Virus record (IMG/VR): IMGVR_UViG_2547132272_000015
Source of the DNA: a virus
Taxonomy: Duplodnaviria; Heunggongvirae; Uroviricota; Caudoviricetes
DNA: 5,727 bases
Direction: 5' to 3' (one strand)
Part shown: positions 655 to 5,454 of the stretch, one piece after another
Position numbering within the stretch: the stretch's first letter is position 1
How the letters are laid out: every line of letters begins with the position of its first letter
Position numbers and translations under genes: made by a program
The notes under the pieces: model-generated
What the model was told of the DNA's origin: nothing
Databases searched by the model: none
What the model saw: the letters and a program-made list of their open reading frames with translations, nothing else

Positions 655-828
655 ATGAGAAAAGCCAGCGTGAAACCCGTTTTACTCGCTCGTGATCAGA
701 TTGAAGCATTACAGCGCATCCAGGACGAGGAACGCCGCAATTCTCCGCTGGGGATTGCTCCGAGCATTCATGAGGTCGCCCGGCGTTTAATGCAGCGGGC
801 GCTTTATCCCGTAGAACGTCCGGCCTGA
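655..828 (+). CDS. small hypothetical protein (57 aa from ATG 655), possible small DNA-binding regulator
   Basis: ORF is open from TTG at 631. ATG 655 has the best spacing to the AGGAG at 642-646; ATG 649 and TTG 631 are alternative starts. Product is basic and helical-looking with no recognisable motif. Confidence 0.5.
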   Translation: MRKASVKPVLLARDQIEALQRIQDEERRNSPLGIAPSIHEVARRLMQRALYPVERPA

Positions 829-867
829 TGGTCGTGATTTTTTGGTGAAAAAAGAGAGGTGGTAAAA

Positions 868-1452
868 ATGCCAGCAAGCAAAGAAGATTTGCGATTAAAA
901 CTGATGGAGGTGGTTAACGCTCTGTCAGAGTCGCAGGGCAGCACTCCGCAGGAGATTATCGAAATTCTGAATGCGATCCCCGCACAGGATTTCACAAAAG
1001 CGGACGAGGATGACGCGAATAAAAACATCGTCGCGTCAGTCGAAGATGAATCCTCACTGGCAGAAGCCCAGGCTAAAGCGGATTCCGCATACAGCAATAT
1101 GGGCCGTCGCGCTCCGGCCCCGTTTGCTGGTGAAAAGTCGATGGATTACCGCAAGCGTGCATTAATTGGCGCACAGAAGCTGGCTAAAAAATTCAGTGAT
1201 GTGGATATTCGTTCCGTTTCAGATTCTGCAACGCTGGCGGTGCTGGAAGATCAGATTTACCAGGCTGCAAAAGACAGTGTTCAGTGGGCCGTGGAAAATA
1301 CGCCGGGCTATTTGCGTAAAACCGTAAGAATGGATGAAGCCGGACGCCGGATTACTGAATATCAGGGAGATCCGAATAACTGGCTTAGTGCTTTCAAAAT
1401 CCCTCCCCGTCGCCTGGTCAAAATTAACACTGCAAGCCTCTCGGGGGCATGA
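868..1452 (+). CDS. hypothetical acidic protein, 194 aa (197 aa if the GTG at 859 is used)
   Basis: Long ORF on the operon strand. GAGAGG/GGTGG lies 5-8 nt upstream of ATG 868. No motif recognised. Confidence 0.7.
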   Translation: MPASKEDLRLKLMEVVNALSESQGSTPQEIIEILNAIPAQDFTKADEDDANKNIVASVEDESSLAEAQAKADSAYSNMGRRAPAPFAGEKSMDYRKRALIGAQKLAKKFSDVDIRSVSDSATLAVLEDQIYQAAKDSVQWAVENTPGYLRKTVRMDEAGRRITEYQGDPNNWLSAFKIPPRRLVKINTASLSGA

Positions 1453-1516
1453 AAAAAGTGCTGATTTCAGCCCTGCCGGATTTGGTGGGGCTTATTGATT
1501 ATAACCGGGTGACATT

Positions 1517-2814: not shown

Positions 2815-2879
2815 ATGTAAAAACAGCAGCTCAGTTTCGTGAGCTGCTCAAATTCAAAAATCCCGCAGGAGTATTGTAA
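2586..2879 (+). CDS. C-terminal (-1 frame) part of the frameshift-interrupted gene; fused product would be about 228 aa
   Basis: Frame is open from 2571 with good codon usage. Its stop TAA at 2877-2879 overlaps the ATG at 2879 of the 680-aa gene (TAATG coupling). Confidence 0.5.
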   Translation: MRLVDKFPGADEGDYGCGEWNMEHSMLVLESYGMDRFIADIEACRQFWRDGEHVISDILDYSAGAGFRDICADSGLNVKTAAQFRELLKFKNPAGVL

Positions 2880-4921
2880 TGTCAGGTAATCAGATGCCAG
2901 TTCTGACGCTGGACGTTAATGAAGAACACCTCAAACGGCTTGAGGCAATTTTTGAAAAGTATCGCAACGGGCTGATGATCGGCCCTGCCGGAACGCCGAT
3001 GAAAATACCGGGGCAAAGTGGGCGCAGCGTGGGGGCAGGCTTACCCGTGGCGGCAAAATCTGGTCGGACAGGACCGGATGTATCCGGGAGAGTGAGGGAC
3101 GAAAAAGGGCGCTTTGTCGGCAGTGGAAAAACAGCAGATTCGTTCGTAAGCAACTATAAAGGTCGCGGCGAAACGATGTTTGATAAGTATCTCAGCGGGC
3201 TGGGGAAAAATGCCCAACAGACGCTGAAAACTTACAAGCAGATCAATTCTACGCTACAGACGACCACTTCGAGATTAAACAACCTGTTTAAAACAACCGT
3301 ATCGTGGGGGACAAAACTTGCGGTTATGGGCGTTGCCGGGCCGTTTGGCTTTGGCATGATGTCTCGTAGTGTTGTAGAGAAACAGAAAAATGCAGATGAG
3401 CTGGTGGCAACGCCGGGAGAATTAAAGGCGGCAGAGAGTACCTATTCACCTTATTTTTCCGGTGTTGGCAATGTGCTCAATACACTGGCAGCCGCGCAAA
3501 ATGATCAAGAACACCCCGCCCGCGTTGGCCTGCTTCATCTGGGGATTAATCCTGATAAAAACGCGACTGAAAACCTGCCTGTATTCCTGAAAAAGGTTGC
3601 AGAGCTGGCAAAGGAATATCAGGGAAGTGGTCTTACCCAGAGTATGCTCAGGGGAAGAGGGCTTGGATGGGTAAATTTTGGTCTTACTAACCAGTTAGTC
3701 AAATATCAGGACAAAATACCTGAACTCAACAAAGAGTTTTCGTTACGTGCAGCGCAGAATGATTCGTTGCTCACTTCTGGACATACAAGCCAGTATCAGA
3801 ATCTTACCAGCAAATTAGAAAATAACTGGGATCGGCTTACCAGTGGGTTTCAGGGAGCGATGTCGGGTAATTCTGAACAACTGATTGGAATATCTAATGG
3901 CGTCACGAATGCTGCCCTGAATTTCATGAATGGTGAGAACTTTAAAAGGATTCTGACTGATGTTGAAACGGGGCTGGATAAACTTGGTAAGTACGTTAAT
4001 GGCCCGGATTTTAATAACGACCTGAACAATTTTGCCGAAAACGTTGCAAAGGTCACCAAGGCACTTAGCGGATTTGTTGGTTTTGCCGTTGAACATCCCT
4101 GGCTTTTTGGGGCCGCAGTGCTTGCGGGGCCATCAAGAGTTGGTGCTGTGGCAGCTACAACAACCGGAGTTGCCGCCCGTGTTGTAGGCGGAAGCCTTCT
4201 TGGGGCTACAGCCGGAACGGTCGCAGGATTGGCTATTCCTACAAATAACACACCAACAACCAGTGAGGAAATGAAAGGACTGGAGGGACGTTTCAACTTT
4301 GATTATTTTAACGAAGTACAGGAGTGGCAAAAAAACAATCCGGGTAAGGTCTGGCCTGGAGGATTGCAGAAATATTCTAACAATGTAAACAGGTCAGCAT
4401 ATTTATCCAGAGGGATCAGGAATAACAATCCCGGAAACCTTAATTTCGCAGGACAAAAAGGGGCGACCCTGGAATCAGGGCCAAATGCCCGTTTTGCCAG
4501 CTTTCCGACGATGCTGGAAGGTATCGCCGCCTTAGATCGGCAGGTCATGCTATACCTGAAACGCGGCAAAAATACGATTGATCAGATTATTGATATTTAT
4601 GCCCCTTCATCTGATGGAAATAACACATCGTCCTATAAAAGCTATCTCTCTCAGTACACCGGATTAGGTGTTAAGGAGAAAATTGATGGTTCTAATTTTG
4701 AGGTCATGAAAAAGCTAATTCAGGGCATTATTAACCATGAAAATGGTGCTGCCGCTAAAGCTGTAAGTGTTGAAGATGTGATCCGGGCGCTGGCTATGAA
4801 TCGTGGGATTGTCCCTACAGCAGGAAATAATAATCAGAACGTTAAGCTTGATATTCTTCAAAAACCAGGCTCCGACATAGTCGCTCAACTGGCCGGATTT
4901 TCGGGGCTTATGCCGAGGTAA
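2879..4921 (+). CDS. large Gly/Asn-rich protein with two hydrophobic segments; tape-measure-like or ejection/membrane-interacting protein (tentative)
   Basis: 680-aa ORF coupled to the upstream gene. Hydrophobic segment around nt 3311-3364 and a long Gly/Ala-rich hydrophobic stretch around nt 4091-4240. Conserved-looking C-terminal block RGIRNNNPGNLNF at nt 4409-4447. Sits directly downstream of the frameshift pair, as tape-measure genes do. Confidence 0.8.
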   Translation: MSGNQMPVLTLDVNEEHLKRLEAIFEKYRNGLMIGPAGTPMKIPGQSGRSVGAGLPVAAKSGRTGPDVSGRVRDEKGRFVGSGKTADSFVSNYKGRGETMFDKYLSGLGKNAQQTLKTYKQINSTLQTTTSRLNNLFKTTVSWGTKLAVMGVAGPFGFGMMSRSVVEKQKNADELVATPGELKAAESTYSPYFSGVGNVLNTLAAAQNDQEHPARVGLLHLGINPDKNATENLPVFLKKVAELAKEYQGSGLTQSMLRGRGLGWVNFGLTNQLVKYQDKIPELNKEFSLRAAQNDSLLTSGHTSQYQNLTSKLENNWDRLTSGFQGAMSGNSEQLIGISNGVTNAALNFMNGENFKRILTDVETGLDKLGKYVNGPDFNNDLNNFAENVAKVTKALSGFVGFAVEHPWLFGAAVLAGPSRVGAVAATTTGVAARVVGGSLLGATAGTVAGLAIPTNNTPTTSEEMKGLEGRFNFDYFNEVQEWQKNNPGKVWPGGLQKYSNNVNRSAYLSRGIRNNNPGNLNFAGQKGATLESGPNARFASFPTMLEGIAALDRQVMLYLKRGKNTIDQIIDIYAPSSDGNNTSSYKSYLSQYTGLGVKEKIDGSNFEVMKKLIQGIINHENGAAAKAVSVEDVIRALAMNRGIVPTAGNNNQNVKLDILQKPGSDIVAQLAGFSGLMPR

Positions 4922-4926
4922 TACCC

Positions 4927-5454
4927 ATGCTAATGAGTAAAGCAGAATATGCTAAACACAAAGGCGTAAGCCGCCAGACAGTTTACGACTGGATCGAGAA
5001 AGGCGAAGTGGTCATGTCCGGTAAAAAAATCGATGTGGAAGCGACAGAGCAGCGGAACAGCCCACCAGCACAGGGAAAAGACGCAGTTTCTGAAATGTGG
5101 CCAGAGAGAACGCTGGAAATGACGTGGGGCGAGTTCTGGAAAGCAGTTAAGGCCAGAGACGGTATAATCCCTGCGCCAGTAACGGACGACGACATACAGC
5201 AACGTGTGCTGGATGCTGCCGGGGAATTAGACTGGGAAGTGCAATTTCTTGATGATGGCGGGATTTGGATGGATGTCGGCGATGCTGAGTTTTATTTCGA
5301 GCAATATGATCTCAGGCAGAATGCCGAACTGGTGATTGGTACGCTGCGACGTGAGGTCTGTTATGTGGCTGATGCTTGTCCTGACGAGCTGGATAACTGG
5401 AGCGAAGCCGGACTAAACGCCCTGGCTGAATGGGAAAAATCAGACCATCAATGA
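4927..5454 (+). CDS. DNA-binding protein with an N-terminal winged-HTH of the Nu1 (small terminase) / AlpA / excisionase type and an acidic Trp-rich C-terminal domain
   Basis: 175-aa ORF with GAGG 8 nt upstream of the ATG. N-terminus SKAEYAKHKGVSRQTVYDWIEKGEV fits the K..LA...GVS..T.Y.W pattern of Nu1/AlpA-type HTHs. Followed by a repeat array. Confidence 0.8.
   Translation: MLMSKAEYAKHKGVSRQTVYDWIEKGEVVMSGKKIDVEATEQRNSPPAQGKDAVSEMWPERTLEMTWGEFWKAVKARDGIIPAPVTDDDIQQRVLDAAGELDWEVQFLDDGGIWMDVGDAEFYFEQYDLRQNAELVIGTLRREVCYVADACPDELDNWSEAGLNALAEWEKSDHQ

Follow-up and report, generated by a model that had tools for sequence, protein, structure and literature searches.

Introduction

The closest precedents for the locus described here are the chimeric tails of Vibrio PLE satellites and the capture of late genes by PICIs reported by Tommasini et al. 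PLE satellites of Vibrio cholerae encode their own tail assembly chaperone (TAC), tape measure protein (TMP) and baseplate hub (BhuB), and the tails they form with ICP1, their phage, are chimeric (Mathur, Boyd et al., Nature 2026, PMC12987554). Gram-negative PICIs are arranged in four zones (integration, Bro/Ant, replication, and a dynamic late zone with captured helper prophage genes) and include helper-embedded elements (Tommasini, Mageeney and Williams 2023, PMC10111431). Lambda-like helpers formed the basis of this survey, in which capsid genes were the most often captured; its main text makes no mention of DUF2213 or tape measure genes. Packaging redirection is represented by EcCICFT073, with the protein Rpp (redirecting phage packaging) and an altered cosB (Fillol-Salom et al. 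2019, PMC6739421), and capsid redirection by Rcm of SaPIpT1028 (PMC12409344).

Here we analyse a 5,727-nucleotide stretch of a caudoviricete virus record (the window), which we consider likely to be the late zone of a PICI-type phage satellite (~14.4 kb) of Enterobacteriaceae, holding an operon for morphogenesis and packaging. Like a PLE, this element is an integrative satellite of a contractile-tailed phage, it encodes a chaperone together with a TMP that is unlike the helper's (here 51% identity to the co-resident helper-type TMP, with another C-domain), its sister elements encode a baseplate hub, and the remaining tail parts must be supplied by the helper. It differs from PLE in its PICI backbone (AlpA, PerC, primase), its host family, its temperate helper and a tail cassette that is optional within the family. 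Its proteins are 50–90% identical to helper-type phage genes, whereas PLE proteins are ~20% identical to those of ICP1 (PMC12987554); the PLE1 TAC structure 5IR0 gave no sequence match to the satellite proteins, and no Rta-like inhibitor was identified in the satellite. Unlike for PLE, virion incorporation is here a prediction. The four-zone layout is shared with the PICIs of the Tommasini survey, as is the embedding of a Citrobacter relative in the helper late gene terL, while neither the split protease/scaffold trio nor the tail-core cassette found in the present Rac-SA53-type lineage is described in PMC10111431.

Results

Genomic context and probable helper phages

The best E. coli matches to the window (94–97% identity) lie within an island whose gene order is int, HTH (AlpA-like), Ant, Icd-like, DUF4222, RepA/primase (primase/helicase), ProQ, PerC and then the late operon. 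The island occurs at no fewer than three different chromosomal sites in E. coli, with different integrases, and in the relative L001 it spans 14.4 kb between 26-bp direct repeats (att). Mapping of the surroundings, suggested in a preliminary description of this DNA made from the sequence, thus returned an integrase, att repeats and PICI architecture. The island holds no lysis, capsid, portal or TerL genes, and in near-identical loci the gene cut by the window start is annotated as a ProQ/FinO family protein. PerC regulators are typical of Gram-negative PICIs and are reported to be common in those of E. coli (PMC11773190).

The last 32 nt of the window have 190 matches in 136 genomes, on chromosomes and plasmids, with as many as 26 in a single genome; in RM10740 an IS3 transposase gene follows ~60 nt downstream of the match. 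An IS3-family element therefore breaks the window's repeat array ahead of its sixth copy, and this split may impair the window's own satellite copy.

For four of the six operon proteins, the homologues are head and tail proteins of Rac-SA53-like myoviruses. Of 5426 E. coli genomes, 90 contain the helper-type head module; at least 20 of these are among the 34 genomes with a satellite, where 0.56 would be expected (hypergeometric p about 3e-28, a value that ignores kinship and that clonal pig ETEC and STEC lineages inflate). By megablast, no such module was detected in at least two of the satellite carriers, STEC346 and RMDEC465. The Citrobacter satellite (L016) separates the body of a Rac-SA53-like prophage from the final 111 codons of the prophage's terL, a remnant 86% identical to Rac-SA53 TerL, and in Pantoea (L013) a Rac-SA53-like head module stands directly downstream of the satellite.

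Operon structure

The window carries on its plus strand six genes and one frameshift extension, arranged head to tail (Table 1), in which two satellite-specific proteins of 57 and 175 aa flank four helper-derived ones. The co-directional, overlapping operon of the preliminary description is real: all ORFs, the ATGA (2197-2200) and TAATG (2877-2881) overlaps and the gaps of 39 nt (828 to the ATG at 868), 64 nt (1452 to 1517 and 2814 to 2879) and 5 nt (4921 to 4927) were found as described. Its count of six to seven ORFs resolves into six genes, since the 97-aa ORF extends the 205-aa gene in the -1 frame. The ATGA overlap is present in the window and is not conserved, since in five of eight aligned relatives the A-run is 1 nt shorter, and the DUF2213 stop accordingly precedes the following start by 7 nt. 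Fold energies and a shuffle test bear out the terminators ahead of the operon, which stand between perC and the late genes, and the repeat array behind it. The number of sigma-70-like sites in the window is not above chance; the candidate upstream of the first late gene has a poor -35 and, if used, is therefore probably activator-dependent.

Table 1 Features of the window
Feature	Position	Strand	Evidence or remark
3' end of ProQ/FinO-family gene, satellite early/regulatory region, cut by window start	1..169	+	Pfam ProQ E=4.5e-07
PerC-family transcriptional regulator, 95 aa	166..453	+	Pfam PerC E=2e-32; ATGA overlap with ProQ stop
Two tandem intrinsic terminators (455-481, 493-523)	455..523	+	-18.9 and -20.9 kcal/mol; z = -3.5 and -4.2; U-run after each
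Weak sigma-70-like promoter candidate	601..628	+	Consensus scan 9/12
57-aa satellite-specific protein, first operon gene	655..828	+	Family restricted to Enterobacteriaceae
194-aa protein, novel ~60-aa N-terminus and C-terminal domain of helper protease-scaffold protein	868(859)..1452	+	Homology
Hairpin between scaffold-like and protease genes	1469..1492	+	-16.1 kcal/mol, z = -2.2
227-aa DUF2213 protein, stand-alone prohead (capsid maturation) protease domain and C-terminal coiled-coil helix	1517..2200	+	
Tail assembly chaperone, 205 aa, zero-frame product, gpG-like	2197..2814	+	phrog_11810 E=1.2e-87
Slippery heptamer T_TTT_TTT, programmed -1 frameshift	2577..2583	+	-1 frame opens at 2571 after TGA 2568
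-1 frame extension (97-aa ORF, 2586-2879)	2583..2879	+	phrog_14324; stop overlaps tape measure start (TAATG)
Tape measure protein, 680 aa	2879..4921	+	phrog_7694 E=3e-296
175-aa satellite-specific protein, N-terminal winged-HTH and novel alpha/beta C-domain	4927..5454	+	
AAAGTGTCAA repeat array, 10 bp	5461..5668	.	4 direct, 1 inverted, and GTGTCAA half-site 5662-5668
Left end of IS3-family insertion sequence, outside operon	5698..5727	+	Divergence from L001 at 5700

The operon proteins had been described as uncharacterised, which holds for the 57-aa and 175-aa proteins, while each of the four phage-derived genes belongs to a PHROG family and has a role that can be recognised. The 57-aa protein has no match in Pfam, PHROG, NCBIfam or PDB, nor by tblastn in 50,697 phage records; its E. 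coli and K. aerogenes versions share 69% identity, and it is possibly a small DNA-binding regulator. In K. aerogenes, Citrobacter and Pantoea its gene immediately precedes the 190-aa/DUF2213 pair. Co-occurrence across genomes accordingly holds for this trio (57/~190/~224 aa), whose frames are intact and whose products share 51–69% identity in a comparison of E. coli with K. aerogenes; the tail genes form a variable and optional cassette, and in the Enterobacter locus only the ~190-aa/226-aa pair is seen. The tail cassette is lost or truncated in about half of the satellites and is therefore dispensable for maintenance of the element. In one relative (L004) a gpX-like and baseplate-hub pair replaces it, in Enterobacter (L015) a TMP is combined with a hub, in ETEC6335 the TAC is truncated and the TMP lost, and ETEC1738, U90 and cq9 show the same reduced coverage with no TMP annotation. 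Among satellites, pN/pS is 0.05–0.27 in all five genes with enough substitutions.

Head-derived genes

The helper head protein of 430–440 aa consists of a prohead protease, a coiled coil, a ~80-aa charged spacer and a C-terminal domain, resembling in its succession of protease, helical spacer and C-terminal domain the protease-scaffold fusions and nested genes of other phages (lambda C/Nu3, Mu I/Z, P2 gpO). The satellite splits this protein into two genes in reversed order, with the C-domain (194 aa) first, the protease and coiled coil (227 aa) second and the spacer gone, an arrangement common to all members. Unlike in the fusions, the two ends are thus separate genes, and their catalysis and capsid binding are putative. 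The 194-aa protein, which has 192 aa in most relatives, aligns through its residues 63-191 with residues 295-423 of the 430-aa protein of Rac-SA53 at 65% identity, and it matches phrog_6216 at positions 405-545 (E=4.8e-47). Identity to the K. aerogenes copy is 51% over the full length, and pN/pS among satellites is 0.21.

The 227-aa protein corresponds to the N-terminal domain of the helper protein, lacks its charged spacer and capsid-binding C-domain, and shares the gp21/assemblin fold and the conserved His and Ser (His73 and Ser127, both invariant) with the proteases T4 gp21, HK97 gp4 and herpesvirus assemblin. Short DUF2213 forms occur in six genera. This prohead serine-protease fold, together with the endolysin-like domain of the TMP (residues 508-638), overturns the earlier impression that the operon had no catalytic signature. 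The stem between the two genes is kept in all aligned satellites, with one G-U to G-C change, and may be an attenuator or mRNA stabiliser setting the ratio of scaffold-like protein to protease.

From its domain content, we propose that the 194-aa protein is an alternative short internal scaffold. CpmB of the S. aureus PICIs (SaPIs) provides the logic for this proposal: it joins the capsid-binding C-terminal part of the helper (80alpha) scaffold to a different N-terminal part and redirects capsid size by scaffold competition, P4 Sid, PLE TcaP and Rcm being further comparators in size redirection. The present protein differs from CpmB in having no sequence relationship to it, in drawing its scaffold domain from a protease-scaffold fusion, in the retention of a separate protease and in its myovirus helper; small capsids are here a prediction.

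Tail genes

The 205-aa chaperone is 82% identical to Rac-SA53 rac52, which sits between the tail tube and tape measure genes of that phage, and its gene has a pN/pS of 0.11 outside the overlap with the extension. The T8 run and the next 20 nt are invariant in two phages and three satellites; RM9088 has T7 in place of T8 and is annotated as frameshifted. The conserved -1 frameshift signal explains the 97-aa ORF, and the predicted product would be a gpGT-like fusion of ~227 aa with the junction ...GELVFF/YMRLVDK.... Within the overlap pS is lowered (0.07 vs 0.21) and pN/pS raised (0.44), as dual coding would predict.

The core of the 680-aa TMP resembles helper-type phage TMPs, being 50% identical to that of Rac-SA53 over residues 1-443. 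Compared with the pPE4 phage TMP it is 71% identical overall with the C-domain swapped: a peptidoglycan-hydrolase domain (residues ~508-638, nt 4400-4792), which matches the PDB entries 7q47 (endolysin, E=1.2e-10) and 9vvp (Gp29, E=2.8e-12), stands where the phage versions have an SLT domain. With the TMP of a helper-type prophage co-resident in strain TUM1881 it shares only 51% identity. The protein is full length, with the hydrolase domain intact and the last ~20 residues conserved, and pN/pS among satellites is 0.05–0.2. It is just 23 aa longer than the helper TMP, and therefore no obvious change in tail length is predicted. As already suspected, its GSGKT is no P-loop: the motif falls within a stretch common to phage TMPs, and no ATPase family matches.

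The 175-aa protein and the repeat array

Behind the 175-aa gene, AAAGTGTCAA occurs in five exact copies at 5461-5661 against 0.53 expected, a number reached in none of 200 shuffles. Counted from the stop codon, the positions +7, +35 (inverted), +61, +142, +198 and +253 are identical in three other satellites, and this register is unchanged although their 175-aa genes differ from that of the window (pS up to 0.36). The C-domain of the protein has no known relative that we found. We propose that the protein is a packaging-site recognition factor and that the array, likely a packaging site of pac/cosB type, comprises its putative binding sites. The arrangement resembles that of Rpp, which is likewise a small protein of a satellite, has a TerS-like winged-HTH in its N-domain, is encoded beside satellite-specific repeat sites and is expected to redirect the helper terminase. 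It differs in length (175 aa vs 144–153 aa), in a C-domain fold without known relative and in a helper terminase unrelated to lambda's; no sequence homology was detectable to RppC or lambda TerS in PDB.

Discussion

Taken together, these results favour with good confidence the late operon of a PICI-type satellite that uses Rac-SA53-like temperate myoviruses as helpers. This agrees with the early suggestion of a satellite cassette for morphogenesis and DNA delivery on a mobile element, which the island context, the att repeats and the head and tail homologues support; in place of a conventional phage module, the operon holds a selection of head and tail genes, split and in altered order.

The part played by the 175-aa protein and its array could be another one, with packaging specificity lying elsewhere or in recognition of the helper pac. 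The winged-HTH is of TerS/excisionase/Rpp type and matches excisionases at least as well as TerS, some database entries name homologues "Repressor" or MerR-family, and arrays of the iteron kind are typical of origins, all of which would suit a replication initiator with an iteron origin, or a role in recombination directionality or transcriptional control. We nevertheless regard such a non-packaging role as rather unlikely: further downstream in L001 a separate iteron and AT-rich region (TTGCGGGTTA repeats) looks more origin-like than the AAAGTGTCAA array, the ~1.1 kb between array and attR is too large for an excisive intasome, two TerS homologues fill the matching slot after the DUF2213 gene in sister satellites of other genera, and the 175-aa gene closes the late operon, 5 nt behind the TMP gene.

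For the operon as a whole, the phage-derived genes might instead form an interference (defence) cassette of dominant-negative decoys, which would poison Rac-like capsid and tail assembly and thereby protect the host population or favour the satellite. Satellites often block helper assembly, systems that interfere with tail assembly are known in PICIs, P4-like elements and prophages (PMC11364771), and PLE11 Rta is a precedent (PMC12987554); the split head protein, with a scaffold fragment that has lost its spacer and a protease that has lost its targeting domain, and a foreign TMP would suit decoys, and the cassette is housed in a variable slot as defence cargo is. Yet the TMP is complete to its last residues, the chaperone retains its frameshift signal and dual-coding constraint, purifying selection extends across the full length of all genes where a decoy would need less, and no PADLOC defence model matches, so that we judge interference as the main function unlikely; it is also compatible with the preferred satellite reading, as PLE does both. 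That the operon is a functionless prophage remnant, with Rac-like head and tail genes left over beside PICI-like early genes, appears highly improbable. The eroded copies in ETEC6335, ETEC1738, U90 and cq9, the shortened slippery run of RM9088 and the IS3 insertion in the window point in this direction, but one and the same compact set of genes is found at several integration sites and beside several integrases, the trio keeps its frames across genera, pN/pS values fall far short of 1, the gene order reflects a specific rearrangement common to all members and unlike random deletion, and att repeats bound an element of a size typical of satellites.

We infer the following course for the satellite late operon. 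After induction of the helper, the operon would be turned on past both terminators. The 194-aa protein would then compete as a short internal scaffold with the long protease-scaffold of the helper, and the free 227-aa protease would mature smaller capsids fitted to the 14-kb genome, although small capsids are not required, as a helper-sized head could hold three genome copies. By binding the six downstream AAAGTGTCAA sites, the 175-aa winged-HTH protein would steer the helper terminase to satellite DNA. The satellite chaperone and TMP would nucleate tails out of the helper's tube, sheath and baseplate parts, and the outcome would be chimeric tails whose DNA-entry component comes from the satellite. 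As judged from its genes, a satellite with its own altered capsid protease and scaffold, tail chaperone and tape measure thus probably builds partly home-made particles.

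An island of phage-inducible chromosomal island type carries the operon

A megablast search of 5,426 complete E. coli genomes matched the whole window at 94–97% identity in 14 of them, chromosomal every time. The best-matching locus, L001 of strain TUM1881, reads integrase, AlpA-like HTH, Ant, YlcI, Icd-like, DUF4222, RepA-family helicase, ProQ, PerC and then the operon, followed 3' by two small ORFs; the island is bounded by 26-bp direct repeats, 14.4 kb apart. Other copies adjoin tRNA-Pro and tRNA-Gly and have different integrases and primases. No lysis, capsid, portal or large-terminase (TerL) gene is present in the L001-type island.

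This is the arrangement of a phage-inducible chromosomal island (PICI), with co-oriented integrase, AlpA-type HTH and primase/helicase genes 5' of a late/packaging zone, and it recurs in the near-identical loci L001, L003, L004 and L005 and the related L006; the window proper covers ProQ, PerC and the late zone, and the rest of the layout is read from these relatives. The size of about 10–15 kb, the att direct repeats and the specific chromosomal sites are likewise those of PICIs. The architecture agrees with that of EcCIMP1 (PMC11773190) and with the four-zone scheme of Tommasini et al., which includes a dynamic "late zone" of genes captured from helper prophages (PMC10111431). One feature departs from the definition: the SatelliteFinder PICI model treats tail genes as 'forbidden', and this island carries genes for a tail assembly chaperone (TAC) and a tape measure protein (TMP). 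Elements like this one could thus be rejected by SatelliteFinder, and we ascribe the mismatch to the limits of an operational rule rather than to the biology. By its architecture the island is of the Gram-negative PICI type, and the operon of the preliminary description is its late zone.

About 650–830 nt past the point where the window ends, the intact element (L001, 26380–26560) has direct and inverted copies of TTGCGGGTTA / TAACCCGC on either side of an AT-rich stretch; the arrangement resembles an iteron-type replication origin of the satellite. An analogous TGAACCAAC array is found at 10040–10170 of the Citrobacter satellite locus L016.

Layout of the late operon

The co-directional run of ORFs previously noted is borne out on the + strand at 655–5454, with gaps of 39, 64 and 5 nt, two tandem terminators 5' of it and the repeat array 3' of it. 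The end of a ProQ/FinO gene and the PerC gene lie 5' of the terminators. Both proposed translational overlaps, ATGA at 2197 and TAATG at 2877–2881, are in the sequence, although the former is a strain-specific trait rather than a conserved one, because it is created by a one-base difference in the length of an A-run (window 2174–2200). The run is A8 in the window, ETEC1748 and ETEC6335 and one A shorter in other copies, which alters the C-terminus of the 227-aa protein (...DQLKKNRVSES versus ...DQLEKTE).

Features of the late operon and its flanks
Feature	Coordinates	Strand	Remarks
Intrinsic terminator 1	455-481	+	-18.9 kcal/mol, then U-run
Intrinsic terminator 2	493-523	+	-20.9 kcal/mol, then U-run
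TGCAAT, two copies	587, 617		duplicated motif
CAATGAT / ATCATTG	589-595 / 627-633		inverted repeat
57-aa ORF	655-828	+	ORF call
194-aa ORF	868-1452	+	ORF call; 197 aa if GTG at 859 used
227-aa ORF	1517-2200	+	ORF call
205-aa ORF	2197-2814	+	ORF call
-1 open frame	2571-2879	+	from just before the heptamer to TAATG
T_TTT_TTT heptamer	2577-2583	+	slippery site
97-aa ORF	2586-2879	+	different frame from 205-aa ORF
680-aa ORF	2879-4921	+	ORF call
175-aa ORF	4927-5454	+	ORF call
AAAGTGTCAA array	5461-5661		five exact copies
IS3-family terminal repeat	5698-5727		window departs from satellite sequence at about 5700

The 57-, 194-, 205- and 680-aa proteins drew no useful match from Pfam, NCBIfam or PADLOC, and no defence-system model matched. 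Rfam returned no RNA family, its lone sub-threshold match being the terminator pair, and PDB sequence searches with the 57-, 194-, 205-, 227- and 175-aa proteins gave no matches. A sigma-70 promoter scan was uninformative (7 sites versus 6.5 expected). A segment 5' of the first late gene (586–633) holds an inverted repeat and a duplicated TGCAAT, which overlap a weak promoter candidate; these repeats may be a candidate operator for PerC, the 57-aa protein or a helper activator.

The head genes are two ends of one helper gene

Window DNA was found in two phage records, Escherichia phage Rac-SA53 and Actinobacillus phage vB_Apl-pPE4 (as deposited), both 47–52-kb temperate myoviruses with a common gene order in which a single 430–440-aa protein is encoded between the portal/MuF-like and major capsid genes. 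The 227-aa protein is 54% identical to residues 1–226 of this helper protein, and residues 63–191 of the 194-aa protein are 65% identical to its residues 295–423. The satellite thus has two genes for the two ends of a single helper gene, with their order reversed. In TUM1881 the helper protein consists of a globular N-domain (1–180), a coiled coil (about 186–225), a charged spacer of about 80 residues and a C-terminal domain. The spacer is without counterpart in the satellite, and its richness in Lys, Ala and Glu accounts for the "TolA" annotations. In the 194-aa protein the first 60 or so residues are new, and they are conserved from E. coli to Klebsiella aerogenes.

The preliminary description had seen no catalytic signature in the operon. 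This does not hold, as a protease-like DUF2213 domain was found in the 227-aa protein and an endolysin-type domain in the 680-aa protein. The former has an assemblin-like fold of the prohead serine protease type (gp21 / HK97 gp4), with candidate catalytic residues that are invariant (His73, Ser127 and Glu153) or nearly so (His161) among 36–37 homologues, the phage protein included. The 227-aa protein ends after the coiled coil and lacks a procapsid-targeting C-terminal segment; the C-terminal domain of the helper is located on the separate 194-aa protein. By its fold, DUF2213 is likely a capsid-maturation (prohead) protease domain. Proteins of the protease-scaffold type include lambda C/Nu3, Mu I/Z and P2 gpO, and by analogy with these we conclude that the helper protein is probably a protease-scaffold fusion of this kind. 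A scan of the helper 440-aa gene for a Nu3-like nested scaffold found no internal in-frame start with a Shine-Dalgarno sequence.

Short DUF2213 proteins (221–229 aa) occur in E. coli, Citrobacter, Salmonella, Enterobacter, Pantoea and K. aerogenes, at identities down to 55%. Their neighbours in K. aerogenes, Pantoea and Citrobacter are a 57-aa and a ~190-aa gene, within a PICI backbone; the Enterobacter locus has the ~190-aa gene, with no 57-aa gene called beside it.

In many metagenomic and phage homologues (P0040–P0058; phrog_6216, a 545-aa profile) a NUDIX hydrolase domain precedes DUF2213 in the same chain, an unexpected companion for a capsid protease, and these fusions explain the misleading 'NUDIX hydrolase' label on the satellite 194-aa protein in some genomes. 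The pPE4 record (PP818812.1) is collinear with an E. coli Rac-type prophage at about 90% DNA identity, so that its stated Actinobacillus host looks doubtful.

A tail assembly chaperone with a predicted frameshift

The 205-aa protein is 82% identical to Rac-SA53 rac52. In Rac-SA53, pPE4 and the TUM1881 prophage the genes run sheath, tube, 205-aa gene, TMP, and in the window the 205-aa gene likewise lies directly 5' of the TMP gene, as expected of a TAC. No sequence match to PDB chains was obtained at E<=1, 5IR0 being presumed among them. The 97-aa ORF, previously counted as a possible separate gene, is the -1 frame extension of the chaperone gene: a slippery heptamer and an overlapping -1 ORF are both present, in the manner of lambda G/GT (X_XXY_YYZ). 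Two phages and three satellites show no change in the T8 run and the following 20 nt, synonymous divergence in the overlapped stretch is lowered (0.07 versus 0.21), a signature of dual coding, and a separate PHROG family, phrog_14324, exists for the extension. The sequence thus predicts a standard gpG/gpGT programmed frameshift, with the junction peptide ...GELVFFYMRLVDK, and no seventh gene.

The satellite of E. coli RM9088 has seven T, not eight, at the site equivalent to window 2576–2583, which is why its chaperone is annotated as a frameshifted pseudogene; it may make a fused GT-like product only, or the difference may be a homopolymer sequencing error.

A tape measure protein with a different hydrolase

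The 680-aa protein is a TMP. It matches phrog_7694 over its full length, its residues 1–443 are 50% identical to the Rac-SA53 TMP, and identity to the pPE4 TMP is 71% overall with a near-identical core; the homologues in three helper-type phages and prophages lie between the TAC and baseplate-hub genes. The phage C-terminal SLT domain is swapped in the satellite for a domain at residues 508–638 with matches to the endolysin structure 7Q47 and to Gp29 of 9VVP, while the last ~20 residues are common to both versions. The doubt already expressed about the Walker-A-like GSGKT was justified: the motif sits in an N-terminal TMP stretch common to phage homologues and no P-loop family matched, and an ATPase reading was dropped.

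TUM1881 also carries a complete helper-type prophage. Its TMP is only 51% identical to that of the satellite and has a different hydrolase, and the two chaperones are 81% identical, indicating that the cassette is a distinct allele and not a fresh copy from the neighbouring prophage.

The slot that holds these genes varies between satellites. TAC and TMP occupy it in 14 E. coli genomes, and an 88-aa protein with a baseplate hub (rac55/rac56 homologues) does so in 08-00022, a coverage pattern shared by OkiPb01676. ETEC6335 has a truncated chaperone and no TMP, with the same coverage pattern in ETEC1738, U90 and cq9. The Enterobacter hormaechei satellite carries TMP and hub 5' of the head pair. 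Several satellites (FDAARGOS_1058, PapRG-04-4, JNU) have, from their coordinates, no tail cassette, the 175-aa gene lying directly 3' of the protease gene. Therefore, tail inner-core and initiator-complex genes have been gained repeatedly, and tube, sheath and fibre genes have not.

The satellite-specific proteins and the repeat array

No tblastn match to the 57-aa and 175-aa proteins was found in 50,697 phage records, and for this reason the idea that they derive from the helper was dropped; Pfam, NCBIfam and PDB sequence searches with both were also empty. The 57-aa gene and its flanks (655–860; alignment A2, columns 56–300) are nearly invariant in nucleotides among nine satellites, with a pS of 0.005 as compared with 0.07–0.21 for the genes that follow. 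A recent sweep or recombination tract is possible, as is an extra DNA or RNA constraint such as a regulatory site or structured leader.

The 175-aa family is widespread across Enterobacterales, and its gene with the repeat array occurs in 162 E. coli genomes, compared with 34 that have the head genes. The AlphaFold model (pLDDT 89) has two parts. Foldseek against viral structures found a generic HTH domain only, and the C-terminal alpha/beta domain has no relative in PDB or predicted viral structures. The protein does not resemble the TerS of the co-resident helper or the TerS homologues of the K. aerogenes satellite, and phmmer against all PDB chains, RppC (6HN7) included, gave nothing at E<=10 save a chance match.

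Five exact copies of AAAGTGTCAA compare with 0.53 expected, and none of 200 shuffles gave five. Three other satellites have the repeats at +7, +35 (inverted), +61, +142, +198 and +253 from the stop, positions that are kept even where the 175-aa gene has diverged. The K. aerogenes, Pantoea and Citrobacter satellites carry two genuine small-terminase homologues in the slot 3' of the DUF2213 gene. We read the 175-aa protein and the array, by position and modelled fold, as a putative packaging-specificity module; it is analogous to Rpp/cosB of EcCICFT073 (PMC6739421), although the protein falls outside the Rpp family.

The 32-nt IS end in the window occurs at 190 places in 136 genomes, and in RM10740 it lies about 60 nt 5' of an IS3 transposase gene. 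As the insertion splits the fifth from the sixth AAAGTGTCAA repeat, the putative packaging site in this copy is possibly damaged.

Selection and association with the helper

Among nine satellite copies, pN/pS was 0.21 for the 194-aa gene, 0.09 for the protease gene, 0.11 for the N-terminal part of the chaperone gene, 0.05–0.2 for the TMP gene and 0.09–0.27 for the 175-aa gene.

Of the 5,426 E. coli genomes, 90 have the helper-type head module, which runs from portal to capsid. The satellite-bearing set of 34 includes at least 20 of these, where 0.56 would be expected; this overlap is a lower bound, counted among the helper-positive genomes listed, and the hypergeometric p of about 3e-28 overstates independence because many of the genomes are related pig ETEC and STEC strains. 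In Citrobacter braakii (L016, 11034–11388) the satellite borders on the last 111 codons of terL, 86% identical to Rac-SA53 TerL at the protein level, after which the portal gene comes directly; with the terL tail stranded in this way, the satellite is embedded in the helper terL. This resembles the helper-embedded PICIs of Tommasini et al. (PMC10111431). In Pantoea agglomerans (L013, 9917–10462) a related satellite likewise lies immediately 5' of the portal gene of a Rac-SA53-like prophage. The enrichment and the embedding are indirect signs that a helper of this type may induce, package and transfer the island.

Discussion

Taking up the gene identities, the rearrangement, the frameshift signal, the conservation and the helper association demonstrated here, we propose that the operon is expressed late, past the terminators. 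The 194-aa protein would compete as a short scaffold, and the free protease would mature small capsids; at 14.4 kb, the island has about 0.3 of the length of the helper genome. The 175-aa protein may mark satellite DNA for the helper terminase, and the satellite TAC and TMP may nucleate chimeric tails. Tape measure proteins of long-tailed phages in general occupy the tail lumen and set tail length by their own length. That a private TMP brings escape from exclusion or from tail-targeting defences is an attractive guess, by analogy with PLE11 (PMC12987554).

A bolder reading, which we put forward tentatively and consider doubtful as a whole, is that this enterobacterial PICI lineage remodels both the head and tail ends of a myovirus virion. 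At the head, a two-piece, spacer-less protease-scaffold would give small capsids; at the tail, the exchangeable cassette (TAC/TMP, gpX/hub or TMP/hub) would be the satellite's own DNA-entry device, including a cell-wall hydrolase unlike that of the helper. The operon might instead be a pure interference cassette, which we regard as quite improbable. It is also unlikely to be a decaying remnant, given the selection on its genes and their conservation across genera. For the 175-aa protein, a role other than packaging appears fairly unlikely. If both virion ends are indeed remodelled, the satellite could enter cells, helper lysogens included, that exclude or resist the helper TMP, and the cassette would serve as an exchangeable module for entry specificity or anti-exclusion, in an E. 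coli system amenable to genetics.

Satellites have long been viewed as stealing whole tails. Tail genes serve as an exclusion criterion in satellite searches, and elements like this one have possibly been overlooked because SatelliteFinder forbids them in PICIs. The PLE work of 2026 provided one exception in Vibrio, with satellite-encoded TAC, TMP and hub, and hinted at others; it also notes predicted tmp genes in PLE-like elements and cf-PICIs. The solved PLE1 TAC structure is 5IR0 (PMC12987554). As in PLEs, the TAC and TMP described here are satellite-encoded and distinct from those of the helper; hub genes occur in the satellites of 08-00022 and Enterobacter, whereas the window itself has TAC and TMP. 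The resemblance is functional, not familial, the sequence comparison being that of the TAC with PDB chains. Tai tail-assembly inhibition (PMC11364771) was set aside as a system of another kind. That Gram-negative PICIs capture late genes of their helpers was published in 2023 (PMC10111431); our literature search found no description of this Rac-SA53-associated PICI lineage, of its split protease-scaffold trio or of a non-capsid-forming E. coli PICI with a TAC/TMP cassette.

Judging by this locus, tail-core genes are also found in ordinary E. coli PICIs, alongside the helper's capsid protease-scaffold in an unusual split form, and DUF2213 gains a fold and a likely function as a prohead protease. 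Satellite and helper-type prophage are both present in sequenced, possibly cultivable strains such as TUM1881, STEC005 and UMNF18. If confirmed, the findings would offer a tractable system in which to ask why satellites exchange the TMP for their own, would show how scaffold length determines capsid size, and would argue for loosening the "no tail genes" rule in satellite detection.
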